From Patescibacteria group bacterium (lineage in GTDB: Bacteria > Patescibacteriota > Patescibacteriia > Magasanikbacterales > GWA2-37-8), in NCBI GenBank assembly GCA_041651015.1, contig JBAZKA010000002.1, forward strand, positions 6,163 through 70,162: a stretch of 64,000 bases of DNA. The letters run 5' to 3'. Positions 4,444 to 17,956 of this stretch are shown piece by piece; within the stretch, counting starts at the first letter, position 1, and each line of letters opens with the position of its first letter. The position numbers were made by a program, and so were the translations under genes. The notes below the pieces were generated by a model. It was given only the letters and a program-made list of their open reading frames with translations. It ran no database searches and was not told the DNA's origin.

Positions 4444-4896
4444 TTAACGCCCTTTGATAATATACATGGCCACGCCCGCGGCCACCGACACATTCAAACT
4501 GTTTTTGATCCCGCGCATGGGCAATTCCACGCTCGCGTCGCAATATTTTAGCAAAGATTTGGTCACGCCGGTCTTTTCATTGCCGACCACAAGGGCAAGC
4601 GGAAACTTTGGTGTCCAATCAAAAATATTTATACTGGTTTTGGTTTGTTCCAAAGCGATTATATTATACCCCTTTTCACGCAAATCCCCAAGCAAGCGCC
4701 ATGTTTGTTTCACATACTCCCAAGGCACGGATTTTTCCGCGCCCAAAGACACTTTGTCCAATTGCGTATGCGGAGGACGGGCCGTATATCCGCAAAGATA
4801 GATTTTATCCACGCCCGCGCCATCCGCGGTCCGAAACATAGCGCCGACATTGTGGGCGCTGCGGATATCGGGCAAAATTAAAACAAATTTTTCCAT
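4444..4896 (-). CDS. SpoU/TrmH-family RNA 2'-O-methyltransferase (TrmL-like)
   Basis: 150 aa; SpoU motifs (PDIRSAHNVGAMFRTADGAG, ALVVGNEKTGV, LPMRGIKNSLNVSVAAGV). Confidence 0.8.
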   Translation of the reverse strand: MEKFVLILPDIRSAHNVGAMFRTADGAGVDKIYLCGYTARPPHTQLDKVSLGAEKSVPWEYVKQTWRLLGDLREKGYNIIALEQTKTSINIFDWTPKFPLALVVGNEKTGVTKSLLKYCDASVELPMRGIKNSLNVSVAAGVAMYIIKGR

Positions 4897-5599: not shown

Positions 5600-7408
5600 A
5601 TGCCAAAAATTAAGGATATACCAAAAATTGATCGCCCAAGAGAAAGGTTTCTGAAAAAAGGAGCTGACGCACTTTCAAAAAGTGATCTTTTGGCAATTCT
5701 TTTAGGTAGTGGAATTAAGGGGAAAAATGTTAGACAACTTTCTGAAAGTATTATTAAAAAATTTGGTAAAAACTTTTTGAACATAACCGTTGATGATCTT
5801 TTAGAAATTTCAGGGATTGGACAAGCAAAAGCCCTCCAAATAGCGTCCGCAATATCATTAGTAAAAAGATTTTACGACGAAAACAAAACTAATGAAATCG
5901 TTATAAAAAATTCTCAAGATGTTTTATCCCTTACTTACGATTTAAGAGATAAGAAAAAAGAACATTTAGTTTGCCTTTATTTAAACGCACGAAATACTTT
6001 ACTAAAAAAAGAAATTGTCAGTATCGGTCTTTTAGATAAGGCATTACTGCATCCGAGAGAAATTTTTTATCCTGCAACCGAATTAAACGCCGCCAGCGTT
6101 ATTTTGGTTCACAATCACCCTTCGGGCGATTCTTCACCAAGCGAAAAAGACAACCAAATCATTGAAAAAATCGTACAAGCTGGTGAAATAATGGGAATAC
6201 CAGTTGTTGATTTCATTATCATTTCTGAAAATAATCATTACAGTTTCTACGAAAAATTAAATAAGCAAAAAGCAAGCGTTGATTATGTTGCAGACGGAAT
6301 ACAAGGCACACTTTTTGCCGTACTTGAAGTTGAAAAACCCGCCTACGAGGTAACGGCTATACAAAAAATTGATAAACCCTATTTCCACTTTTCAAAAACT
6401 CAAAATGATACCTTCCAATTGCAGAATAGAAGATATTTGGGCAATAAATACAAACTGCTCGGATTTATTGAAGATATTGTTGCTGAAAAATGCAACGGAA
6501 TAAAATCATTTTGTGATATTTTTGCGGGTACAGGTGTTGTCGGAGAAAGATTTAATAAGCCAGAAATAAAAATTATTTCGAATGACTTCCTTTTTACAAA
6601 TTATGTTTGCCTAAAAGCGTTCCTTGGTACAAATTCACCTATTCAGAAAATTGCAGATAAAATTGATATTCTCAATAGTTTAAAAACTGATCGAGATAAT
6701 TATTTTTCAAAATACTTTGGTAATACCTATTTTTCGCTAGAAAATGCTAGAAAGATTGGAGCAATCCGTGAAGAAATAGAAAAAATGGCCGAAACGGAAG
6801 AAGAAAAAAAAATTCTCATTTGTTCCTTAATTTATGCAGTTGATAAGGTTGCAAATACAGTCGGACATTATGACGCTTTTCGTAAAGATTTAGATATGCT
6901 ACAGCCATTAAAACTTTTGGCTCCCGATATTGACTACTTAAATAATGGAAATAACGAAATTTACAAAGAAGACGCAAACATCTTGATTAGAAAAATTGCT
7001 TGCGACGTTTTGTACATAGATCCGCCCTATAACTCGCGCCAATATTCAGATGCCTATCATTTACTGGAAAATTTAGCTGAATGGAAAAAACCTAATGTTG
7101 AAGGAATGGCAAAAAAAATGGACCGCTCTCACATAAAAAGTTCCTATTGTCTTAAAAATGCTACACAAGCATTTGAGGACTTGATTAAAAATGCTAATTG
7201 TAAACATATATTATTGTCTTATAATAACACTAGGGATTCAAAGGATGGACGTTCAAATGCCAGAATAAACGATAATGATATTTTACGGATATTAAAAAAT
7301 AAAGGTGAAGTAGAAATTTTTGAAAGAGATTACAAGGCCTTCACTGCTGGAAAAAGCAACGGCGACGGAAACGTCGAAAGAATTTTTTATTGTAATATAA
7401 CAAAATAA
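5600..7408 (+). CDS. fusion protein: N-terminal RadC-like JAB/MPN domain + C-terminal Dam-like (D12, alpha-class) N6-adenine DNA methyltransferase
   Basis: 602 aa. N-terminal half has helix-hairpin-helix and the RadC HNHPSG(x)SPS(x)D motif. C-terminal half has RYLGNKYKLL, FxGxG (DIFAGTGVVG) and DPPYNSRQY in Dam-family order. Confidence 0.75.
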   Translation: MPKIKDIPKIDRPRERFLKKGADALSKSDLLAILLGSGIKGKNVRQLSESIIKKFGKNFLNITVDDLLEISGIGQAKALQIASAISLVKRFYDENKTNEIVIKNSQDVLSLTYDLRDKKKEHLVCLYLNARNTLLKKEIVSIGLLDKALLHPREIFYPATELNAASVILVHNHPSGDSSPSEKDNQIIEKIVQAGEIMGIPVVDFIIISENNHYSFYEKLNKQKASVDYVADGIQGTLFAVLEVEKPAYEVTAIQKIDKPYFHFSKTQNDTFQLQNRRYLGNKYKLLGFIEDIVAEKCNGIKSFCDIFAGTGVVGERFNKPEIKIISNDFLFTNYVCLKAFLGTNSPIQKIADKIDILNSLKTDRDNYFSKYFGNTYFSLENARKIGAIREEIEKMAETEEEKKILICSLIYAVDKVANTVGHYDAFRKDLDMLQPLKLLAPDIDYLNNGNNEIYKEDANILIRKIACDVLYIDPPYNSRQYSDAYHLLENLAEWKKPNVEGMAKKMDRSHIKSSYCLKNATQAFEDLIKNANCKHILLSYNNTRDSKDGRSNARINDNDILRILKNKGEVEIFERDYKAFTAGKSNGDGNVERIFYCNITK

Positions 7409-7410
7409 CT

Positions 7411-9228
7411 ATGAAAAAACCTTGGTCAATTACTACAACACTAAGAAATCCCGAAAGATTGAGAGATTTTTTAATTGTTTTAAGACAACTTGAAAATTGC
7501 AAGTGGGATTTAGAAAGTCAGAAAAAATATCAAATTCTTTTGATAAAAGAGAGGGTTTACGGCTATGGAAGCAATCAATTTTACAATGGATTATCTCAAA
7601 AACAAATTGATTTAATTGACGATCAAACAAAAACAATTACCTTTGAACAAGCCGAAACGATTTTTAATGCTAAAAACTACGAAGATCCTTCAACGAGAGG
7701 GCGGCAATCAATAAATCCTCTTAAAAAATTCGGACTCGCTGTTATTAAAGACGAAAAAATCTGTATAACCAGCTTAGGAAAACTATTTTTAAAAGACGAT
7801 TTTGATCTTGGTGAAATATTTTTTAGAAGTTTTATTAAGTGGCAAATCCCAAATCCTGATAGCGATGACTATAAACTTGAAGATGGATACAATATAGAAC
7901 CATTTGTCGGCGTGCTTCATCTTATTCGGGAAGTAAATGAAAAATCTAGAAAATCAGGAGAAAAAGAAAAAGGAATAAGCAAGGAAGAATTTTCCTTATT
8001 TTGTCCAACCCTTGTTGATTATGAAGATATAGAGCTTTATTCTGAAAAAATTATTGCCCTACGGAAAAAACTTAAAGACAAAACGAAGCAAGAACAAAAA
8101 ACAATCCGCGACAAATATAAAAAAACTTTCGCACGGGAATTTCTTGGAAAATCAAATACTACAGAAATTCAAAAACTCTTAAAAAATCTCAAAGACTACG
8201 GAGATAACGCTATCAGATACTTCCGCCTAACTCGCTATATTTATATACGGGGTGGTGGTTTTTATATTGATCTGGAGCCGAGAAGATCAGTTGAAATCAA
8301 TGCTTTGTTGGATTTTGATAATGCTAAGTCGAAGACCTTTGAGACAAAAGAAAAATACTTAGACTATATTTCTGACATCTCGGAGCCAAAACTACCGTGG
8401 GAAACTAAAGAAAAGCTTACTGAAATTGCCATAAAATTACTTGAAGAAATAAAGTTGTTTGAACGAGAAACAAGGGTAACACCAAAAGTATTTTTGGATT
8501 ATCAAAAATTGGATGGAGATGGATTAAAAAAATTTATCAATGAACTGCGAAACTACCGAAGAGAGCTGCAGGACAAACAAAATCACCAAAAATCACAAGA
8601 TACGGAACAAATTAAATCCTACATTCAAGAACTTGAAAATATTTTTGAATCTGAAGATCGGCCAATACTGCTTGAAAAGTTGTCATCGCTAGGTCTGAAT
8701 GCCCTAAACGATGCATTAAAAATACAACCAAACTATCCAGTTGGTGATGATAACGAGCCAACATTTACGGCACCGGCAAACACGCCAGATATAGAGTGTT
8801 TTTATCAAGGTTTTAATGCTATCTGTGAGGTAACAATGCTAACGGGAAGAGATCAATGGTACAACGAGGGGCAACCAGTGATGAGACATTTAAGAGATTT
8901 TGAGAATAAACATAGCGATAAAACTACATATTGCTTGTTTATTGCTCCCCAAATGCACAGAGATACTATAAACACCTTTTGGACAGCCATAAAATACGAA
9001 TACGAGGGCAACAAACAAAGAATAATCCCTTTATCAATAAACAATTTCGTGTCTCTTTTAAAAATACTCGTACAAATAAAAACCGAGAATAAATTTTTAA
9101 AGCACAGCGAAATTGCTCGCCTATACGATGAAATAATTAATTCATCAAATTCTTTTAGCGATTCCGATGGTTGGCTTAGAAATATTCCCACCGCCATTTC
9201 GTCATGGCAAGAAAGCCTAAATTTTTAA
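7411..9228 (+). CDS. putative Type IIS restriction endonuclease, AlwI-family-like
   Basis: 605 aa. N-terminal W-x-I-T-T-x-R-N-P-E-R pattern recalled from RE_AlwI-family proteins. Located 2 bp after one methyltransferase and overlapping the next. Family assignment is from memory, not a search. Confidence 0.5.
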   Translation: MKKPWSITTTLRNPERLRDFLIVLRQLENCKWDLESQKKYQILLIKERVYGYGSNQFYNGLSQKQIDLIDDQTKTITFEQAETIFNAKNYEDPSTRGRQSINPLKKFGLAVIKDEKICITSLGKLFLKDDFDLGEIFFRSFIKWQIPNPDSDDYKLEDGYNIEPFVGVLHLIREVNEKSRKSGEKEKGISKEEFSLFCPTLVDYEDIELYSEKIIALRKKLKDKTKQEQKTIRDKYKKTFAREFLGKSNTTEIQKLLKNLKDYGDNAIRYFRLTRYIYIRGGGFYIDLEPRRSVEINALLDFDNAKSKTFETKEKYLDYISDISEPKLPWETKEKLTEIAIKLLEEIKLFERETRVTPKVFLDYQKLDGDGLKKFINELRNYRRELQDKQNHQKSQDTEQIKSYIQELENIFESEDRPILLEKLSSLGLNALNDALKIQPNYPVGDDNEPTFTAPANTPDIECFYQGFNAICEVTMLTGRDQWYNEGQPVMRHLRDFENKHSDKTTYCLFIAPQMHRDTINTFWTAIKYEYEGNKQRIIPLSINNFVSLLKILVQIKTENKFLKHSEIARLYDEIINSSNSFSDSDGWLRNIPTAISSWQESLNF

Positions 9229-9230
9229 AT

Positions 9231-10007
9231 ATGGGTATGAAAAAAAATATTATCTACAACGACGATTGCATAAACATACTTAACACGAAGATTGATAAGA
9301 GTTCTATTGATCTTGTCTTTGCCGACCCTCCGTACAATTTATCTGGCAATGGTCTAAAATGGCAGGGCAGCAAAACTGGTGGAGATTGGTATATGGTGAA
9401 TGAGCATTGGGACAAAATGACTGCCCCTGAATATCTACAATTTACCAGAAAATGGATCGGGGCTTGCCATAAAATTTTAAAAGACACAGGATCAATTTAT
9501 ATTGCATGTAGTTACCACAATATCGGTGAGGTAATGATTGTTTTGAAACAATTAGATTTCAAGATAAATAATATTATTACTTGGTACAAAACAAACGCCA
9601 TGCCGAATATGACAAGGAGGGTGTTTACTCACGCAACAGAATTTGTAATTTGGGCTGTTAAAGGTAGTGGATGGACTTTTAATTATAAAGATCTTAAAGA
9701 AATAAACCCTGAAAAACAAAAAGACGGAACCGAAAAACAAATGCGTGATTTTTGGGAATTACCCTTAGTTCAAGGCAAGGAAAGAATACGCGGAAAAGAC
9801 GGCAAAGCGTTACATCCAACTCAAAAACCAGAAGAAATGTTAAAAAGAATCATTTTAGCCAGTTCCAATGAAGGCGATACTGTTTTAGATCCATTTTTAG
9901 GAAGCGGGACAACTGCCGTTGTGGCTAAAAAATATGGTCGCAAGTGGATTGGGATTGAAAAAGAAAAGCAATATTTTAAGATTGCTGAAGAGCGAATAAA
10001 AAAATAA
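9231..10007 (+). CDS. beta-class N4-cytosine/N6-adenine DNA methyltransferase
   Basis: DPPY (FADPPYN) N-terminal and FxGxG (DPFLGSGTT) C-terminal, which is the beta-class order; ATG 9231 chosen to avoid overlap with upstream stop at 9228. Confidence 0.8.
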   Translation: MGMKKNIIYNDDCINILNTKIDKSSIDLVFADPPYNLSGNGLKWQGSKTGGDWYMVNEHWDKMTAPEYLQFTRKWIGACHKILKDTGSIYIACSYHNIGEVMIVLKQLDFKINNIITWYKTNAMPNMTRRVFTHATEFVIWAVKGSGWTFNYKDLKEINPEKQKDGTEKQMRDFWELPLVQGKERIRGKDGKALHPTQKPEEMLKRIILASSNEGDTVLDPFLGSGTTAVVAKKYGRKWIGIEKEKQYFKIAEERIKK

Positions 10008-10011
10008 ATTC

Positions 10012-11154
10012 ATGACCAGCACAAGAGAACAAAATGGCGGTTACTATGCAATTAAGGGTTTTACCTATCAATTTGATAAGTCTCTTTTAGAAATCCTTAA
10101 GAACCAAACGCAGGATGTCGAACTTGAACAAATTCAAGACATTGGGCTAAGCGATTACTATATTCAAGTTAAATACAAAGAAACTCAAAATTACGCCGAT
10201 TCAAAAATCAAACCAGCAGTGTTGCAATTATTAAAATGTTTTCTGGATGATAAAAATAAAAAATTCAAACTATATTGTTATTTTAAAGACAAATCGTCAC
10301 AGACAATCGCTTTAACCGATACCAAGCTTGATGAAATATTAGGTTCAGATAGTAGTGCTTACACGCAAAGTGATAAACAAGCTTTTGTGGGAAATTTCAC
10401 TTTGGAATTTTCAAGTAATTTTGAGAAGCAGTTTAGTGATCTTATAAAACTTATAAAAACCTGTTTTAGTTTAAAGACAGAGGAAGAGGCAACAACATAT
10501 CATGCAATATTTAAAGCAAATTTATTTGGTATAGCCATTAAAAAGAATCCAAAACAAAGAACAATAAATTATAAAAAACTAAAAGAAGTCGCTAACAGCA
10601 ACGAAAAAATAATATTTGATATAGCTTATTGTAAATATCTAAAGATGGAACGATATTTGAAGTATGTAAAAAAAGAGTATTTCACTTTCAAAAAAGTAAA
10701 TACTCCGAGCAAAGAAAGACTTTTTGTTGTTGAGATGGATAATTCAACAAGGGATGGAGATGCCATTCAAATCATAACAAATATAAAAAATCGATACTTC
10801 AAAAAGGATACATCCCCAGCTCCTTATGTTTGTTTATTTGGGATAGACAACGAAAGGATTGCTAATCTCAAACAAAAACTTTGGGACAAGGGGTTGATAT
10901 TTTCTGACGGCACACATTTTGATAGGGATAAATTTAGAATGACTGATCTTATTGCAGACACACATAATAACAATTGTGGTATAACATTTAAGCTTTTGTC
11001 ACTTGAACAATTACCTCTCTTTTTCAAAAAGAAACGACCCGATGAGACTTTTGTATTTTTAACATCTGGCGATGGAGAATGGCGAACAAAAGTTAAAGAA
11101 TTCAAAGAGTTTTATATTGGTCGCACAAAAAATATTACTAAAATAATTCAATAA
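10012..11154 (+). CDS. DUF4297-like (Cap4-type PD-(D/E)xK-like) putative nuclease, partner of HerA ATPase
   Basis: 380 aa. N-terminal GFTYQ motif and D...(I)QVK motif resemble REase-fold QxK variants. Immediately precedes HerA-like gene (4 bp gap). Confidence 0.45.
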   Translation: MTSTREQNGGYYAIKGFTYQFDKSLLEILKNQTQDVELEQIQDIGLSDYYIQVKYKETQNYADSKIKPAVLQLLKCFLDDKNKKFKLYCYFKDKSSQTIALTDTKLDEILGSDSSAYTQSDKQAFVGNFTLEFSSNFEKQFSDLIKLIKTCFSLKTEEEATTYHAIFKANLFGIAIKKNPKQRTINYKKLKEVANSNEKIIFDIAYCKYLKMERYLKYVKKEYFTFKKVNTPSKERLFVVEMDNSTRDGDAIQIITNIKNRYFKKDTSPAPYVCLFGIDNERIANLKQKLWDKGLIFSDGTHFDRDKFRMTDLIADTHNNNCGITFKLLSLEQLPLFFKKKRPDETFVFLTSGDGEWRTKVKEFKEFYIGRTKNITKIIQ

Positions 11155-11158
11155 ATTT

Positions 11159-12892
11159 ATGCCGGAAGTAAAAATTTCAGCTGAAGTTATCTCTGTCTTT
11201 CCAAACAAGGTTAGAATAGCAGTAAGCGATATTGAATCGTTTAAAATAGCTGGGGAACTCTTGGCGGTCGGCTCATATCTCAAAATTTTTGACAACAACG
11301 ACTGTTTTATTGTTGCAATAATAGAAAATTTCTCTATCGTGATGTCTGATCCAGATAAGGAAGGAAAAAGAGATAAGTCCTATATAGTCGAGGCTGTGCC
11401 TCTCGGATTTATCAATTCGAGTGGCGAATTTATTCGAGGTGGCAATAATATTGCAATTCCTCCAAAAACAGTCGAACCAGCTAAAAAAGAAGACATACAA
11501 AAAATATATGACGACATCAAAGATAAAGATCGATTTTGTTTCTCAAAATTAGCTCAAGACACCTCGATAACTGTTCCTGTTGATGGAAATAAATTTTTCA
11601 ATAAACACATCGCCATAGTTGGGTCTACAGGATCCGGTAAATCACATGCTTTGGCAAAAATAATTCAAGAGGCTATAAAAGAAAAAAATATTGGTTATAA
11701 TGGTTTAAATAATTCTCATATAATTATTTTCGACATTCACGATGAATATAAAACTGCGTTTTCTTCAGCCTCATACATTAACGTCGACCAATTAGTGCTC
11801 CCATATTGGCTTATGAACTCGGACGAACTCGAAGAATTGTTTTTAGAATCAGGTGATTTTAATAATTATAATCAAAGCTCAATCCTAAATAGGCTCGTCA
11901 CCGAGAATAAAAAATTAAATAACCCTGGCCAAAAAATCGAGTACGGTAGTCCAGTTGTATTCAAAATAAATGAAATTTTAAACTGTCTAGTTAACTTAAG
12001 CAAAGAGACAAAAAATTATAAAAATCAAGACGAAATTTCTATAAAGGGGGCCTCTAAAACTTTTAGTGGGGATAGTGAAAAATATAAATGTTATTTTGAA
12101 AAAATATTAGAATTTGAAGAACCGAAAGCGCAAAACTTTTCAAAAGGTAGTTTTGCGGATGGAAGTTTGGATAAATTTATCTCTAGATTAAAAAATAAAT
12201 ATTCTGACGCAAGGCTAAAATTTTTATTTGATCCTGCTGTAGAAAGTTTAAAATTTGAAGAAATTCTTCGTCAATTTATTTCTTACAAAACTGGCAAAGA
12301 ATCCAATGTCACAATAATTGATTTAAGTGGTGTCCCCTTTGAAGTATTAAGCATTACAGTATCCCTTATTTCAAGAATTTTGTTTGATTATGCTTATTTT
12401 TATAAAAAAACAAATACTTCATCAATTAACGAAACTCCATTATTGGTGGTATACGAAGAGGCGCATAAATATGTTCCAAAAAATCACTTGGCAAAATTCA
12501 ACGCATCGAGGTTTGCAATAGAGAGAATTGCAAAAGAAGGTAGAAAATATGGAATAACGTCTATAATTGTAAGCCAGAGGCCATCTGAAGTATCTGAAAC
12601 TATATTTTCACAGTGTAGCAATTTCATAGCGATGAGACTAACCAACCCAGAAGATCAAAATTATGTTCGTCGTCTTTTACCAGATACTCTTGGACCACTA
12701 ACAGAATCTTTACCAATACTCCAAGCTGGGGAGGCTCTATTAATTGGCGATTCTGTAGTTATGCCATCACTTGTAAAAATTGACCCATGCACAAATTCAC
12801 CATCATCAAATGATATTAAATATCTTGAAGAGTGGAAGAAAGAATGGAAAGATGTCGCGTTTGATCCAATAATTAAGAAGTGGCAAAAGTAA
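11159..12892 (+). CDS. HerA/FtsK-like (DUF87) ATPase
   Basis: 577 aa. Walker A IAIVGSTGSGKSH, Walker B LLVVYEEAHKY, SIIVSQRPSEV motif; N-terminal HAS-barrel-like region. Confidence 0.75.
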   Translation: MPEVKISAEVISVFPNKVRIAVSDIESFKIAGELLAVGSYLKIFDNNDCFIVAIIENFSIVMSDPDKEGKRDKSYIVEAVPLGFINSSGEFIRGGNNIAIPPKTVEPAKKEDIQKIYDDIKDKDRFCFSKLAQDTSITVPVDGNKFFNKHIAIVGSTGSGKSHALAKIIQEAIKEKNIGYNGLNNSHIIIFDIHDEYKTAFSSASYINVDQLVLPYWLMNSDELEELFLESGDFNNYNQSSILNRLVTENKKLNNPGQKIEYGSPVVFKINEILNCLVNLSKETKNYKNQDEISIKGASKTFSGDSEKYKCYFEKILEFEEPKAQNFSKGSFADGSLDKFISRLKNKYSDARLKFLFDPAVESLKFEEILRQFISYKTGKESNVTIIDLSGVPFEVLSITVSLISRILFDYAYFYKKTNTSSINETPLLVVYEEAHKYVPKNHLAKFNASRFAIERIAKEGRKYGITSIIVSQRPSEVSETIFSQCSNFIAMRLTNPEDQNYVRRLLPDTLGPLTESLPILQAGEALLIGDSVVMPSLVKIDPCTNSPSSNDIKYLEEWKKEWKDVAFDPIIKKWQK

Positions 12893-12959: not shown

Positions 12960-13330
12960 AAGAAATAAGGAGTTTTGAATTTTGGGCATTCACCCCTGAC
13001 CCCTCTGCCCAAAATCCAAAACGGAAAAAGAAATTTTAAAATTTTTTAAAACAATTCCGACTGCTGTCGGAAAAAAGAAAAGGAATACATCAGCTAACAA
13101 CGAGTATCCGGTTACGGCTTTCCCCGAAAGCCTCCACCCAAATTTTTCTTTCGCTTCGCTTCAGAAAAACTTCGGATACTCGTAACGTTATATGACATAC
13201 ATGTTTTCCGTTGGGGCTGCCGCCCCGCTCTTAAAAAGAATCCGATTTCGTTTTTTGGTGATTGAGCGAGGGGAAATATAGTGTTTTCTTCGCTACGCTA
13301 CGAAAACCGAATTATTTAATAAAAAATATT
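12960..13330 (+). repeat. island repeat copy 2 (inverted partial core 12960-13030, hairpin aacgagtatccg...cggatactcgt 13088-13197, direct core 13197-13320)
   Basis: aligned by eye to copies 1 and 3. Confidence 0.7.
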
Positions 13331-14137
13331 ATGGCTGACAACTACTACGTTTACGTCTACATTGATCCTCGGAATTACGAGGAATTTTACTATGGAAAAG
13401 GCAAGGGCAACAGAAAAGTAGCGCACCTATATGATGAAAAAGACACAGAAAAAACTAAAATTATAAAAGCCATTCAAAAAGAGGGGCTTGAACCTATAAT
13501 TAAAGTGGTTGCAAAAGGATTATCAGAAAGTGATGCATTTTTAATCGAAAAAACTTTAATTTGGAAACTTGGAAAAAATTTATCAAATATTTCATCGGGT
13601 CATTTTTCAGATAAATTCAGGCCACATAATAGTTACCACCTTAATCTGAATAGTTTTGATTTTGCAAACGGAATTTTTTATGTAAATGTTGGCGAAGGCG
13701 AAACTCGGGCATGGAGAGATTGCCAAAATTTTGGCTTCTTGGCGGCTGGGCAAGGCACAAAGTGGAGCGAACCACTAAAAACATTGAATATCGGTGATAT
13801 TGTCGTGGCATACTTAAAACGAAAGGGATATGTCGGAATTGGTAGGGTAGTCGAAAAAGCCAAGCGGGTACTGGATTTTAAATTTGACGGAAAATCGCTA
13901 AAAACCCAAACTTTAGACAGCACCGATCTCTTTAAAAATTCAGATAATGAGAATACAGAATTTTTGGTCAAAATCGATTGGATTAAAAGCGTGCCGACAA
14001 ATGAAGCGAAGTGGAAAAATAATTCGGGACTATTTACAACACAATTAATTAAGGCATCACTTGAAAACCAGGTAAAAACAATTAATTTTTTAGAAAAAGA
14101 ATTCCATGTTAATTTTACGGACATAATGAACGATTGA
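13331..14137 (+). CDS. GIY-YIG nuclease fused to PUA-like (EVE-type) domain; putative modification-dependent endonuclease
   Basis: N-terminal YVYVYIDP...FYYGKGKGNRK is a GIY-YIG-type motif. C-terminal W-RDCQNFGFL...IGDIVVAYL...GYVGIGRVV resembles the EVE/PUA beta-barrel pattern. Start moved from 13262 to ATG 13331. Confidence 0.55.
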   Translation: MADNYYVYVYIDPRNYEEFYYGKGKGNRKVAHLYDEKDTEKTKIIKAIQKEGLEPIIKVVAKGLSESDAFLIEKTLIWKLGKNLSNISSGHFSDKFRPHNSYHLNLNSFDFANGIFYVNVGEGETRAWRDCQNFGFLAAGQGTKWSEPLKTLNIGDIVVAYLKRKGYVGIGRVVEKAKRVLDFKFDGKSLKTQTLDSTDLFKNSDNENTEFLVKIDWIKSVPTNEAKWKNNSGLFTTQLIKASLENQVKTINFLEKEFHVNFTDIMND

Positions 14138-14265
14138 TATATTTTATAAAATTATTAATTCCGCTAATTTTCAATTCATACTCAAATATACATATTAGTA
14201 AATTTGATTATTGGATTAATTGAAGCCCTTGTTGATAACTTTTTGTTAATAGTATAAAAATGGCT

Positions 14266-14290
14266 AATTTTAGCCATTTTTATAACTACT
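14266..14290. promoter_or_regulatory. palindromic operator-like site AAAAATGGCTAAttttTTAGCCATTTT
   Basis: near-perfect inverted repeat directly upstream of the -35; related GGCTAA..TTAGCC motifs at 15894-15917, 27680-27695 and 27807-27829. Confidence 0.45.
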
Positions 14291-14299
14291 TGACATAAT

Positions 14300-14329
14300 C
14301 AAAAAAATCATTTATAATATCATTATTCC
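14300..14329 (+). promoter_or_regulatory. near-consensus sigma70 promoter (TTGACA-18-TATAAT)
   Basis: TTGACA 14300-14305, TATAAT 14324-14329, about 40 bp upstream of ATG 14371. Confidence 0.6.
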
Positions 14330-14370
14330 TACACAAGTAGTACTTCACACTAAATTAATTAATTTTTCTT

Positions 14371-15096
14371 ATGAATCAAGAAAATAAACAAATAACTCCA
14401 CCATATTTGAGCATGGCAAAACTTGCCAAATTAGTTGAAATCGTGAAATCAAGAAACATGACCCAGGTTAATCCTACTCATTTTATCACTCAAGGATTCA
14501 GTCAGGCAGATGCATACGTTGCAATAAACTCATTGCGCTTCCTGGGTCTAGTAGATGACAACAATAATACCACCGATTTATTTCGTAAATTTCAATTAGT
14601 AGGAGAACAGGGCAAAAAAGGCATGGAGGAAGTAATAAAATCTGCATACTCTAAATTATTTGAATCATTCGCTAATGGGAATCCATACGATGAAGGAAAT
14701 GAAGATAATTTAATAAATGATTTCATGATTCAATATGCTATATCAAAAAGAATCGCGGGACCAGCATCAAAAGCATTTGTTTGGTTGTGCGAACAAGCTG
14801 GACTCAGAGAACAATCCATAAAAATACAAGAAAGAAAAATCCGTGTTACATCAACAAAAAAATTGGCAGATAAAAGTAACAACAAAAACAAACCGCAAGC
14901 TGACACAAAAAATGAAAATCCTACTGGAGTAGCTCTCACTCTTAATGGTGGTATTATCATATCAATACCAACAACGGACATAAGAACATCACAAGCAATT
15001 GCATTGGGCGAACTTAAAAGCGCCGTCGAGGAACTTAATAAGTTTGCATTAAAATATATTGTGGAAACCGAAACTAAAAATAATGATGCTGTATAG
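14371..15096 (+). CDS. hypothetical protein (helical N-terminal domain, Lys/Asn-rich linker, small C-terminal domain)
   Basis: 241 aa with no catalytic motif recognised; first gene of promoter-driven pair. Confidence 0.55.
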   Translation: MNQENKQITPPYLSMAKLAKLVEIVKSRNMTQVNPTHFITQGFSQADAYVAINSLRFLGLVDDNNNTTDLFRKFQLVGEQGKKGMEEVIKSAYSKLFESFANGNPYDEGNEDNLINDFMIQYAISKRIAGPASKAFVWLCEQAGLREQSIKIQERKIRVTSTKKLADKSNNKNKPQADTKNENPTGVALTLNGGIIISIPTTDIRTSQAIALGELKSAVEELNKFALKYIVETETKNNDAV

Positions 15097-15111
15097 CAAA
15101 CTTACCATACT

Positions 15112-15732
15112 ATGAATATCTATCTTGACGAATCATACAATCTCCAAAAAAATAAAGGGAAAATGTTTATAAGCATCAACGGGTTTGCTGTCCTTGATGA
15201 TAAAGTACTCCGCAAACGCTGGAAAATCGTTCGAAAGGATTATTTAAAAATGAAACGACGTATTCACGCGACTGATTCACGCTTTGAGGATCTCCGTGGA
15301 AAAAGTATAAAAATGCTTGGACGTCACGATGTAAATATTCTTTCGATATTCCAACTGACGCAAGAAATATCTCATGACTACTTTGATACAAATGGCATAA
15401 GATTTGATACCGTGTACACTTCTCTTCTTAAAAAACTATTCACTGATTTATCTCTTGGTGAATACAAGCAAGCACGCATAGTTATGGACGCGAGAAAGCA
15501 TAAAGGCGGGATACTTGGGGAAATCATTTTCCAAAAAACTATCGAGGGATTTCTTTCTGATAAATTCCCTTCAACACGCTGTGTGTTAAAACTTACGCCA
15601 TCCTACGCAGACATTCTGATTGAACTTGCAGACTTTGTGTCCAACACATTTTACAAAGAATATCAGCAAGATTCGGAACACATATTCAAGAAACTTGGAT
15701 TTCGGTTGATACAAATCAAAAACCCGCTATAA
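15112..15732 (+). CDS. DUF3800-like protein
   Basis: 206 aa. N-terminal MNIYLDESYN matches the conserved N-terminal D-E motif recalled for DUF3800; sits 15 bp after the upstream gene. Confidence 0.55.
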   Translation: MNIYLDESYNLQKNKGKMFISINGFAVLDDKVLRKRWKIVRKDYLKMKRRIHATDSRFEDLRGKSIKMLGRHDVNILSIFQLTQEISHDYFDTNGIRFDTVYTSLLKKLFTDLSLGEYKQARIVMDARKHKGGILGEIIFQKTIEGFLSDKFPSTRCVLKLTPSYADILIELADFVSNTFYKEYQQDSEHIFKKLGFRLIQIKNPL

Positions 15733-15871
15733 AAGCGGATTTCCGTAAGAGCCTTTTGGGAATGTCTTTGCTTCAACGAGATGTTCCTGAAAGAGAACGC
15801 CCTCCACAAAGCTTTACCCTAAGGACTTATCTTCTAAATACATTATAACATGAATAGCCGGTTTAGTCAAT
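15720..15871 (-). ncRNA. candidate small antisense/convergent transcript (promoter TTGACT-17-TATAAT at 15871-15843 on minus strand; terminator hairpin ccgct-tttat-agcgg + T-run at about 15745-15720)
   Basis: promoter and intrinsic terminator read directly on the minus strand; no ORF; transcript ends at the stop codon of the DUF3800-like gene. Confidence 0.3.
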
Positions 15872-15949
15872 GTACTGTGGATAATTATTAACATTTTGGC
15901 TAATTCAAGCCAAAATTATAGTACACTGGAGACAAAAATTAATGTTTTT

Positions 15950-16165
15950 GGCCGCCGGGCATTCACCCCTTTTGTTCCCCTCTGCCCTGCGCCCAAAAGC
16001 GACAAAAAACGAAATCGGATTCTTTTTAAGAGCCATTTGAATTGACGAAATAACGGAAAACATGTACATCATATAACAGCGTGTATGCGGCTACGGTTCC
16101 CCTATCGGCGAACCTCCGCCCATATCGCTAAGGCGACATCGCATACACGCGAACGTTGTACGAAA
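15950..16165 (-). repeat. island repeat copy 3 (inverted orientation; core 15955-16090, hairpin cgcgtgtatgcg...cgcatacacgc 16090-16160)
   Basis: reverse complement aligns with copies 1 and 2 (gttatatgatgtacatgttttccgtt...gctcttaaaaagaatccgatttcgtttttt). Confidence 0.7.
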
Positions 16166-16715
16166 TAAATTATTTACTAGCCCCACCAGCATTGAAGGGA
16201 GGTAACAATGAAATGGTGGCGAAAAGTGGTAGAAATCTATCACAACATGTTCAATGTGAAGTTCGCTGTCCTTTCGGCCGCCTTTAATGGTCTGGTCGCA
16301 ATGATGGTGAACATGGCACACAGCCCCGAGCAGTACCTGATGGCAGGACTTGCACAGGCGGCCTCAAGCTTCCTGTCAACCGGAGTCACGGCAAGAGTGG
16401 TTCAACACTTTTCGCCCATTCGGTCCGCGCCAGTCTCGTACTTCTTCGGAAGCTTGGTGCCTGCAACCATGACGTTTGTGATGAGCTTGGCAGTTCACCT
16501 TTGGAACAACACTCCAGAGGTTCTGGCAAGTTGTGTGGCTCCGACGGTCATCAGCTACACGACCAGCTACATCACAAACTACATCACCCGGCGTGGCTAC
16601 ATGCTGCCCGGAAACTACAAGGAGGTGCAAAAATGATCCCGCGTCAGCCTCCGAACAGGACTGACGCGGGACACTCACTCAATGAATGTGGGGCTAGTAA
16701 ATAATTTAGCCGATA
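16166..16715 (+). mobile_element. 550-bp unit bounded by perfect 19-bp inverted repeats (AAATTATTTACTAGCCCCA / TGGGGCTAGTAAATAATTT) carrying one GC-rich ORF
   Basis: IRs at 16166-16184 and 16697-16715; interior GC content clearly higher than flanks; 11-bp-stem hairpin after the ORF. Confidence 0.5.
16208..16636 (+). CDS. hypothetical hydrophobic protein (GC-rich, probably foreign)
   Basis: 142 aa; strong SD GGGAGGT 6 nt upstream of ATG; several hydrophobic segments. Confidence 0.5.
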   Translation: MKWWRKVVEIYHNMFNVKFAVLSAAFNGLVAMMVNMAHSPEQYLMAGLAQAASSFLSTGVTARVVQHFSPIRSAPVSYFFGSLVPATMTFVMSLAVHLWNNTPEVLASCVAPTVISYTTSYITNYITRRGYMLPGNYKEVQK

Positions 16716-16864
16716 TGCGGTTCAAGAAAAAAGTATAAATATTTTCAGCGGATATTTTTTTCTCTCACCCATATTTCGCACACATCTAAATAATATGGAA
16801 TGTGCGAAACATCGCATATCGGCATACGTTATCTGAAATTAAATTTCTGGACTATAATAAAATT

Positions 16865-17443
16865 ATGGATTTACGCATTTACAACGAGGCTAAGCAATTT
16901 GTTTTTGACTCTTTCAATAAAGCCGAAAAACCTTCGCAGATAAAACATTTTGTCAAAACAGTGCATTGGTTAAAAATTCTGTCGCCTAATGCCGATGAGG
17001 CGTTGCTCGTAGCGGCGATTGCTCACGATATCGAAAGGGCTTTTCGACAAAAAGATGTTTTAGAAAAAAAGACTTCAGCGGGTTTTACAAGTATAGAATT
17101 TTATCGTCTGCATGAAGAGCGTGGCGCTGAAATTATTGCTGAATTTCTAAAACATAAAAACGTGGATGACGGCTTTGTTGAAAGAGTTAAAAAGTTGGTT
17201 TCTCGACATGAAGAAGGCGGTGATGATGATCAAAACCTACTAAAAGATGCTGATAGCGTTAGCTTCTTTGAAACCAACGTTCCATTTTTTCTCGATAAAA
17301 AATCATTGGAAATTGGCAAGGAAAAAGTTAGACTGAAATTTGATTGGATGTATAATAGAATAACATCCGAAAAAGCGAAACAAATTGCTCAGCCTATGTA
17401 TGAAAAAGCAATTAGTGATTTAAACAAGGGTCCGGAAATTTAA
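16865..17443 (+). CDS. HD-domain phosphohydrolase
   Basis: H...HD motif (AAIAHDIER) and downstream D (LLKDAD); start placed at ATG 16865 (MDLRIYN). Confidence 0.6.
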   Translation: MDLRIYNEAKQFVFDSFNKAEKPSQIKHFVKTVHWLKILSPNADEALLVAAIAHDIERAFRQKDVLEKKTSAGFTSIEFYRLHEERGAEIIAEFLKHKNVDDGFVERVKKLVSRHEEGGDDDQNLLKDADSVSFFETNVPFFLDKKSLEIGKEKVRLKFDWMYNRITSEKAKQIAQPMYEKAISDLNKGPEI

Positions 17444-17543
17444 CATCAGATAACACGCGATATCCAAAATTCGCCTTCGCTTCGCTACGGAAAACATCGC
17501 ATACACGCGTACGTTATTGTAAAATTAGTTTAATTCAAACCAT

Positions 17544-17885
17544 ATGAAAAAAATAAACTGGACTCGCGTTATTTTCATCGTCGGTGTTATCGCCCTTTTA
17601 ATTGGCGCCATTGACCCCTTGGAGGGTTCGGTGATAATTGTAGCCGGTAGTGCGCTCATCGCGCTCGCGACATATTTAGCGCGCGACCGATACTGGAAAA
17701 TATTTTTCGCGTCTTTTGTATTGATTATAATGGGCGTGGCTCTTATGTTTTATATGTCGTCTCTCGGCGGTTTTGGCGGAGAATCTACTCTGTCTTGGGG
17801 GTGGGCCGCGCTTATGATTCCCTATCCGATCGGATGGCTGATGACCATAATTACGTTAATCGTCAAAGCTGTTAAAAAACAGTAA
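17544..17885 (+). CDS. small integral membrane protein, unknown function
   Basis: 113 aa, 3-4 TM helices. Confidence 0.45.
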   Translation: MKKINWTRVIFIVGVIALLIGAIDPLEGSVIIVAGSALIALATYLARDRYWKIFFASFVLIIMGVALMFYMSSLGGFGGESTLSWGWAALMIPYPIGWLMTIITLIVKAVKKQ

Positions 17886-17956
17886 GTAATAAATAAAATT
17901 GCCAACTGATAAAATATCCGATACACTTAATTAACATTAAACATTAACTTAAAAAT

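Follow-up and report, generated by a model that had tools for sequence, protein, structure and literature searches.

An integron-like array of promoterless gene cassettes probably surrounds an inverted-repeat-bounded gene in a Patescibacteria genome

We propose with moderate confidence that the region from 13.1 to 17.9 kb of the window (the whole stretch of 64,000 nucleotides of Patescibacteria DNA analysed here) is an integron-like array of promoterless cassettes, and that the gene named ORF142 is one horizontally acquired cassette in this array. Four attC-like elements lie within 4.4 kb (13086-17523), all of them on the gene strand and each behind one gene block, and there are none elsewhere in the 64 kb (Table 1). 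A hairpin scanner also returned no such elements elsewhere in the window, and 0 in 20 shuffles; the element E1, which a sequence model named R1 scored at 79.8 bits, was found by this scanner as well. We term the elements integron-like and do not file them as canonical attC sites.

Table 1. Coordinates of the attC-like elements, the cassettes and the features of the ORF142 unit in the window
Feature	Position	Strand	Details
E1	13086-13198	+	R'' AGCTAAC 13092-13098; L'' 13100-13110; L' 13173-13183; R' GTTATAT 13187-13193
Cassette 1	13188-16155	+	GIY-YIG 13262-14137, DUF5343 14371-15096, DUF3800 15112-15732 (Pfam); element E2
Cassette 1 terminal repeats	13187-13212 / 16052-16077; 13227-13257 / 16003-16033		26 nt, 92%; 31 nt, 100%
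E2	16065-16167	+	R'' ATATAAC 16071-16077; R' GTTGTAC 16155-16161; conserved GAAATA after; R1 64 bits
E2 stem	16079-16089 / 16140-16150	+	L'' GCGTGTATGCG; L' CGCATACACGC
ORF142 cassette	16156-16828	+	673 bp; limits are G/TT of E2 and E3
Left arm of inverted repeat	16166-16195	+	20 bp perfect, 3-nt internal mismatch, then 6 bp
Shine-Dalgarno site	16197-16202	+	GGGAGG
ORF142	16208-16636	+	142 aa; conserved 5-helix hydrophobic protein; MFA5127659.1, annotated hypothetical protein
Post-stop hairpin	16637-16671	+	11-bp stem 16637-16647 / 16661-16671; 13-nt loop; T-run absent
Right arm of inverted repeat	16679-16708	+	
E3, site of the ORF142 cassette	16709-16839	+	R' GTTATCT 16828-16834; R1 27 bits, model positions 17-118 only
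E3 stem	16709-16719 / 16813-16823	+	L'' GCCGATATGCG; L' CGCATATCGGC
Cassette 3	16829-17513	+	HD/DUF4202 gene, ATG 16865, end 17443; repeats 16828-16852 / 17430-17454
E4	17442-17523	+	R'' AGATAAC 17448-17454; R' GTTATTG 17513-17519; R1 47 bits
Cassette 4	17514-17935	+	113-aa membrane protein 17544-17885
Degenerate-looking half element	about 17906-17926		CTGATAAAATATCCGATAC; read by eye; R1 did not detect it

ORF142 lies between the two arms of an inverted repeat, the perfect part of which is 20 bp long (TAAATTATTTACTAGCCCCA, 16166-16185 on the + strand and 16689-16708 on the - strand). A sequence-only reading of this DNA had noticed the repeat, and its presence was confirmed; the length of 19 bp given there for the perfect repeat was too short, and its interior of 530 bp has to be replaced by a gap of 503 nt between the 20-bp arms. 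At 90% complementarity the repeat stretches to 30 nt (16166-16195 / 16679-16708), and the left arm then ends 1 nt before the Shine-Dalgarno site. In the 64 kb, only these two arms were found as copies of the repeat when up to 3 mismatches were allowed (chance expectation, 0.01). The Shine-Dalgarno site GGGAGG, the 142-aa ORF and the hairpin with an 11-bp stem, which made up the whole interior in the sequence-only reading, were all located, and no second convincing ORF was seen between the arms. The same reading correctly described the interior as richer in GC than its surroundings, since we measured 0.52-0.56 within the repeat unit and 0.31-0.40 in the flanks. It was also right that no transposase accompanies the unit. 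No sigma-70-like promoter was found inside the repeat unit, and a search of Rfam at gathering and at permissive thresholds gave no known RNA family in or around it.

The GC3 of ORF142 is 0.66, compared to 0.26-0.36 in the adjoining genes and about 0.50 in the core genes for RecA, PfkB and rubrerythrin. There are at least 63 homologues with 52-98% identity, named only as hypothetical proteins, and their carriers are CPR bacteria (Buchananbacteria and others) and DPANN archaea (Woesearchaeota and Nanoarchaeia). The protein identity is 75-98% in several CPR lineages and 45-65% in MAGs labelled as DPANN archaea. The GC3 of the ORF is high (0.55-0.75) in many AT-rich hosts, and it is host-like in the distant homologues. 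This indicates a recent horizontal spread of one clade, and the foreign origin that had been proposed for the gene is borne out by the high GC3 in so many AT-rich hosts.

The members of the ORF142 family are well-conserved membrane proteins that are uncharacterised. Nothing significant was found for ORF142 in Pfam, in NCBIfam or in the PDB, the latter searched by sequence and by fold; the best sub-threshold matches were DUF7940 (E = 0.016, below the cut-off), PilC (E = 0.076) and a Foldseek match (E = 0.45). AlphaFold predicts a five-helix bundle with a mean pLDDT of 82 (helices 3-14, 17-34, 40-68, 74-100 and 105-128). The invariant polar residues inside the hydrophobic helices include R63, Q66, H67, N100, N124 and R128. 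The protein might be a small membrane transporter or channel, but this is speculative.

We fetched about 70 loci for comparison. The repeat does not occur only in this window but recurs around homologues of ORF142 in other contigs, namely L001 (98% identity), L087 (97%), L005 (89%, decaying), L002 (87%), L070 (82%), L003 (80%), L063 (75%), L007 (74%) and L030 (60%). The gene neighbourhoods of these repeat-bearing loci are unrelated, and ORF142 and its repeat move together from one to another, as expected for the compact passenger unit that the sequence-only reading had envisaged. Over 7 distinct loci, 89.9% of the cells of the repeat are paired, and both sides have changed at 10 of 27 pairs. 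None of 500 shuffles reached so high a value, and sliding the partners against each other left 36-47% paired. The complementarity of the arms is thus maintained and is more than a matter of inheritance.

The repeat is absent or decayed in L088 (86%), in L065, L020 and L021 (78-79%) and in L069, and L025 has kept only a degenerate right arm; nearly all homologues below 67% identity are without it. Because some of these homologues are close to ORF142, the protein does not need the repeat. In the repeat-less homologues, the post-stop hairpin has a T-run and resembles an intrinsic terminator, whereas the repeat-bearing copies are without the T-run. The setting of the repeat-bearing copies also differs. 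Three loci (L003, L005 and L007) contain the repeat and ORF142 without any attC-like element; in L003 the module sits in plain intergenic DNA between a TyrRS gene and a radical-SAM gene, and in L007 a canonical intrinsic terminator lies 3' of the right arm. In three others (L002, L063 and L070, and in L030 for the 5' half), the repeat and ORF142 are found inside a single element, where they replace the variable inner hairpin. All four in-loop copies begin 10 nt after L''. On the 3' side of the module come the TCGCTCATCCAAAT box, L' and R', and the L'' and L' of the element that hosts such a copy are complementary and covary. The module therefore follows ORF142 more closely than it follows any particular site. 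We considered whether the in-loop arrangement could come from the arrangement between elements, and found no single deletion, inversion or site-specific event from which to derive it. What looked like an empty hairpin 5' of the L025 homologue lies in coding sequence and was rejected.

Viral contigs were searched as well. The exact left arm was seen once, which could be coincidental; this copy, in L071, adjoins a reverse transcriptase with TR/VR-like repeats. In these contigs, a degenerate pattern of the arm gave 16 single-arm matches, which is about the chance level, and patterns made from the 3' ends of the elements gave no real elements.

The attC-like elements have a common order. From the 5' side they consist of ACATC, xxxxAAC (R''), an A, an L'' of 11-12 nt and a variable inner hairpin, and these are followed in the 3' half by a CnCACCCAAAT box, L', nnAC, GTTxxxx (R') and GAAAT. 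In an alignment of 16 elements, AA and TT never vary, C is retained by 15 elements and G by 13, and R'' is always proximal to the upstream ORF. The sequences of L'' and L' vary by element yet stay complementary when read by eye, as in the stems of E2 and E3 (Table 1) and in the pairs ACGAGTATCCG/CGGATACTCGT, CGCGATATCCGA/TCGGATATCGCG and CGGGATATCCGA/TCGGATATCCCG. The inner hairpins vary in sequence and size, and the length from R'' to R' is 72-144 nt in the uninterrupted elements. Every well-paired element has an unpaired spacer of a single nucleotide on its R''-L'' arm, compared to 3-4 nt on its L'-R' arm, and most L stems are unbulged. The model R1 was made from seven element copies and was restricted to sequence, because RNAalifold gave no consensus pairs for the first element alignment, in which the loops do not align. 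Its matches were confined to the window, L001, L002 and L063 and lay on the gene strand in every case. In L063, at least 8 elements have one gene each, and the cargo is unrelated, including Abi_alpha, tRNA-Thr_ED and isochorismatase; arrays of the same element family with one gene per element are also present in L002 and L001.

The 5' half and the 3' half of E4 do not match, so that E4 is a hybrid element, as is the one at 9583 in L063, and R'' differs among near-identical copies. The hybrid elements and the differing R'' suggest frequent deletion between adjacent elements. E3 is without an R'' box: 12 nt (CATCGTACAACA) that are present in L001 are deleted in the window, and the right arm abuts L''. 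With its R'' box lost, the ORF142 cassette has probably become fixed in place, and the copy in the window is probably immobile now.

Evidence for cassettes comes from their ends. In six cassettes, the R' of one element is the complement of the R'' of the next at 7 of 7 positions, whereas it matches the R'' of its own element at only 3-5 of 7. Examples are GTTATAT of E1 with ATATAAC of E2 and GTTATCT of E3 with AGATAAC of E4; L002 provides the pairs GTTAAAC/GTTTAAC and GTTAAAT/ATTTAAC. Integron cassettes exchanged at G/TT are classically recognised by this pattern. Two cassettes have kept the extended repeat but not the complementarity of R' and R''. The pairing of cassette ends runs 15-40 nt past the 7-bp R box and is broken only by a conserved two-base mismatch, in which GAAAT stands opposite ACATC. 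When the two ends of the same cassette were aligned, the median score was 19 (range 5.5-26). For the wrong pairings (n = 261), the mean was 7.3 and the 95th percentile 10, which 9 of the 11 cassettes surpassed. Among the five longest inverted repeats of the segment 13080-17960, four are pairs of cassette ends: both repeats of cassette 1, the ORF142 repeat and that of cassette 3. The repeat is thus no peculiarity of ORF142, because each local gene block has its own terminal inverted repeat that reaches from the GTT box to the AAC box.

The limits of the ORF142 cassette follow from comparison with its closest relatives. Near-identical copies of ORF142 (97-100%) have three different upstream elements. 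The window and L087 differ in the upstream element, and their homology begins at G/TTGTACGAAATAAATT (TTGTAC...), where the slash marks the boundary. In L001, the right arm is followed by the R'' box GTACAAC, which is the exact complement of GTTGTAC in the window. This complementarity and the start of homology at the GTT box define a cassette from 16156 to 16828, and the boundaries of the unit are wider than the sequence-only reading had drawn them. The 3' ends of E2 and E3 make up a direct repeat whose start-to-start distance, 673 nt, equals the length of the cassette. Cassette 4 is probably the end of the array, just 5' of the rubrerythrin gene.

Under the integron-like reading, the inverted repeat would be the pairing of the 5' end of a cassette, after the upstream GTT, with its 3' end, before its own AAC. 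In an excised circle or a single strand, the arms would flank the element and prolong its stem by 20-30 bp beyond the R box; the junction of a circular cassette would run from E3 through the G of its GTT box into TTGTACGAAATA and the left arm. A structure-recognising site-specific recombinase encoded elsewhere, cutting at or next to G/TT, would then shuffle the cassettes. No recombinase was found in the 64-kb window by Pfam on nearly all ORFs of 170-610 aa, or among the called genes of the L063 locus, whose 17.3 kb reach about 7 kb to the 5' side of ORF142 and 10 kb to its 3' side, and a regular expression for tyrosine-recombinase motifs, which is a weak test, gave nothing in all fetched loci. 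Clusters of attC sites that lack an integrase (CALINs) are frequent and are known from archaeal MAGs as well (PMC9668308; PMC9024848), and the missing integrase is thus weak evidence against the integron-like reading. The reversed asymmetry of unpaired bases, described below, is a stronger point against it.

The likeness to integrons and CALINs is extensive. The units are promoterless, mostly contain a single gene, have unrelated functions, lie on one strand and are each followed by a palindrome. Integron attC sites are about 57-141 nt long and have a variable terminal structure; the palindromes here, of 72-144 nt, are likewise conserved by structure and not by sequence and show the AAC...GTT polarity. 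A cassette begins with bases that are complementary to its own R'', implying a crossover at or near G/TT. As in CALINs, there is no adjacent integrase, the elements within a genome are alike and the composition of the cargo is heterogeneous. To our knowledge, neither a long complementarity beyond the R box nor a GAAAT/ACATC box has been described for attC sites, and here such boxes, conserved and mismatched, flank the R box, with the end pairing reaching 15-40 nt into the cassettes. A further difference is that one cassette gene can occupy the variable terminal loop of another site. In canonical attC sites, the bottom strand is selected by an unpaired central spacer and by the R''-L'' arm, which contains two or three extrahelical bases (PMC2727003). 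Here the arrangement is reversed, with mostly perfect L stems and with the unpaired bases on the L'-R' arm. Ghaly et al. 2022 (PMC9668308) reported archaeal and cross-domain cases of integrons. In the literature searched, we found no integrons reported from Patescibacteria.

Another system with some resemblance is that of the pdif modules of Acinetobacter plasmids, in which genes are bounded by inverted XerC/XerD sites, with one conserved 28-bp sequence for all modules. Both have passengers without a transposase, inverted repeats and a head-to-tail order, and in both a site-specific recombination by the host is supposed. However, each cassette here has a private end sequence, and the conserved part is a hairpin element of 70-140 nt between the cassettes.

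The copies of ORF142 inside a loop and those without elements are not explained by an extension of the stem of their own attC-like site. Three other explanations of the repeat were considered. We regard it as unlikely that the repeat has its role in RNA, with both arms transcribed and a long-range helix between the 5'-UTR and the 3'-UTR enclosing ORF142. Such a helix might, for example, allow RNase III to process a read-through transcript of the array into a stable monocistronic mRNA, or it might control the access of ribosomes, which is conceivable because it stops 1 nt before the Shine-Dalgarno site. Precursor stems of rRNA and the RNase III sites of phage T7 are comparable in that 5' and 3' flanks pair around an RNA, as is predicted here; the predicted MFE fold of 16155-16720 includes the terminal helix, with a z-score of -10. 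The terminator that follows the right arm in L007 would place both arms in one transcript, and the hairpin without a T-run in the repeat-bearing copies would let transcription reach the right arm. The repeat also persists in L003, L005 and L007, which are without attC-like elements. However, the non-Watson-Crick cells show no strand bias (4 are compatible with G-U on the + strand and 5 on the - strand), so that the sequence does not decide between RNA and DNA. The close homologues without the repeat (L088, L065, L020 and L021, and L025 with its decayed right arm) suggest that it is dispensable for expression. In the other cassettes, the complementarity begins exactly at the recombination boxes, unlike RNA processing stems, and the pairing here is known from the sequence and a predicted fold. 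A role in RNA does not conflict with the cassette reading, and the repeat could have both functions.

It is improbable, in our view, that the repeat-bounded unit is a non-autonomous gene-carrying element of MITE-like or foldback type, moved by an enzyme in trans and independent of the attC-like elements. One module in three kinds of site (between elements, inside a loop and in plain intergenic DNA, as in L003) would be expected of such an element, and short terminal inverted repeats with no transposase inside are typical of MITEs. However, no target-site duplication was present at the junctions read: the left arm is preceded and the right arm followed by CGAAA and GCCGA in the window, by CGTTG and TGCTT in L003 and by AAATA and AAAAA in L007. 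The unit is single copy per contig and has coding cargo, and its repeats covary instead of keeping a fixed consensus for the binding of a transposase. The in-loop copies, all 10 nt after L'', fit one ancestral event better than repeated insertion, and comparable end repeats of different sequence are present in every other cassette of the arrays. The sequence-only reading, which had likened the unit to a miniature transposon-type element, is thus partly supported: the duplications and the multiple copies of the repeat that this type implies were not found, respectively, at the junctions read and in the 64 kb. An invertible switch, in which a recombinase flips the segment from arm to arm so that a promoter outside it does or does not drive ORF142, seems very improbable. 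The geometry would permit it, as the gene lies between inverted repeats without an internal promoter, but the module has one orientation only relative to the elements (window, L001, L087, L002, L063 and L070), ORF142 is co-oriented with the neighbouring cassettes wherever the polarity can be judged, and no invertase gene is nearby.

Compared with these alternatives, we prefer the integron-like array of cassettes. There is a small chance that the array belongs to a distinct and undescribed cassette system of CPR bacteria, and possibly of DPANN archaea as well, with a recombinase other than a classical IntI, a much longer folded site and genes that enter hairpin loops. The entry of genes into hairpin loops is suggested by the ORF142 copies inside loops in L002, L063 and L070 and by the private terminal repeats. 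These repeats resemble the stems of former empty hairpins, such as that of the 33-nt empty cassette at 7439-7471 in L063. If this is true, the repeats would be a fossil of the birth of cassettes, a matter that is still open in integron research.

Both CPR bacteria and DPANN archaea live as episymbionts with tiny genomes, and little is known of their gene exchange. The locus described here shows a cassette architecture that looks functional in a genome of the Patescibacteria. Its departures from integrons, namely the unpaired bases on the opposite arm, the mismatch box and the long pairing of the ends, may represent a new class of site or may illustrate the extent to which integron sites drift. 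The in-loop copies of ORF142 may bear on the origin of cassettes.

The roughly 120 nt lying 5' of the attC-like element E1 (window 12975-13085) were homologous to the roughly 120 nt 5' of E2 (15945-16064), with the sequence GGGCATTCACCCCT...CCCCTCTGCCC..., and therefore some attC-like elements of this array family have a longer conserved 5' extension. Towards the 3' end of the GIY-YIG ORF and within it, a stretch of 27 nt (14002-14028) was 81% complementary to the loop of E1 (13137-13163), and the loop of the element E4 was likewise matched by it. The match has two readings: the stretch is a piece of an element in inverted orientation, or the similarity is due to chance.

L063, which carries a homologue of the 142-aa membrane-protein gene (ORF142), contained an 'empty cassette' at 7439-7471 (GTTATTCAAAATGCGCAGCGCCTTTTGAATAAC), a bare hairpin flanked by two attC-like elements, the stem of which was an R'/R'' pair of end boxes. 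On the Buchananbacteria contig of L003, a small hairpin (ATTTTAACTCGC...GCGAGCCTTTAAAAT; 4500-4560) was located 3' of a copy of ORF142 that had no attC-like element. Because this hairpin shows the asymmetric spacer of the array elements (1 nt versus 4 nt) and is without GTT, it may be a decayed mini-site.

A segment of 21 nt identical to the left arm of the inverted repeat enclosing ORF142 was noted in L071 (IMGVR_UViG_3300022561_000672, 9116-12161). On one side of the segment was a reverse-transcriptase gene (RVT_1, E = 6.6e-18), and on the other were two repeats of about 110 nt each that differed chiefly at T/C positions, a pattern that looks like a diversity-generating retroelement. The identity to the left arm may be due to chance, because neither ORF142 nor a second arm was present.

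At the start of the HD/DUF4202 cassette, a perfect TATAAT (16854-16859, within 16849-16867) was situated in the left terminal repeat, just 5 nt 5' of the HD/DUF4202 ATG. The gene may have a leaderless mRNA, or the cassette may have a promoter of its own.

A defence-type gene island occupied 5600-12892, 5' of the cassette array.

Genes of the defence-type island and their window coordinates
Feature	Position
RadC-Dam methyltransferase fusion	5600-7408
AlwI-family restriction endonuclease	7411-9228
N4/N6 methyltransferase	9204-10007
380-aa ORF without annotation	
HerA/DUF87 ATPase	11159-12892

Cassette 1 (13188-16155) carried three genes, namely a LEM-3-like GIY-YIG nuclease, DUF5343 and DUF3800, and was bounded by inverted repeats of 31 nt (perfect) and 26 nt. 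It could be a mobile defence module of three genes.
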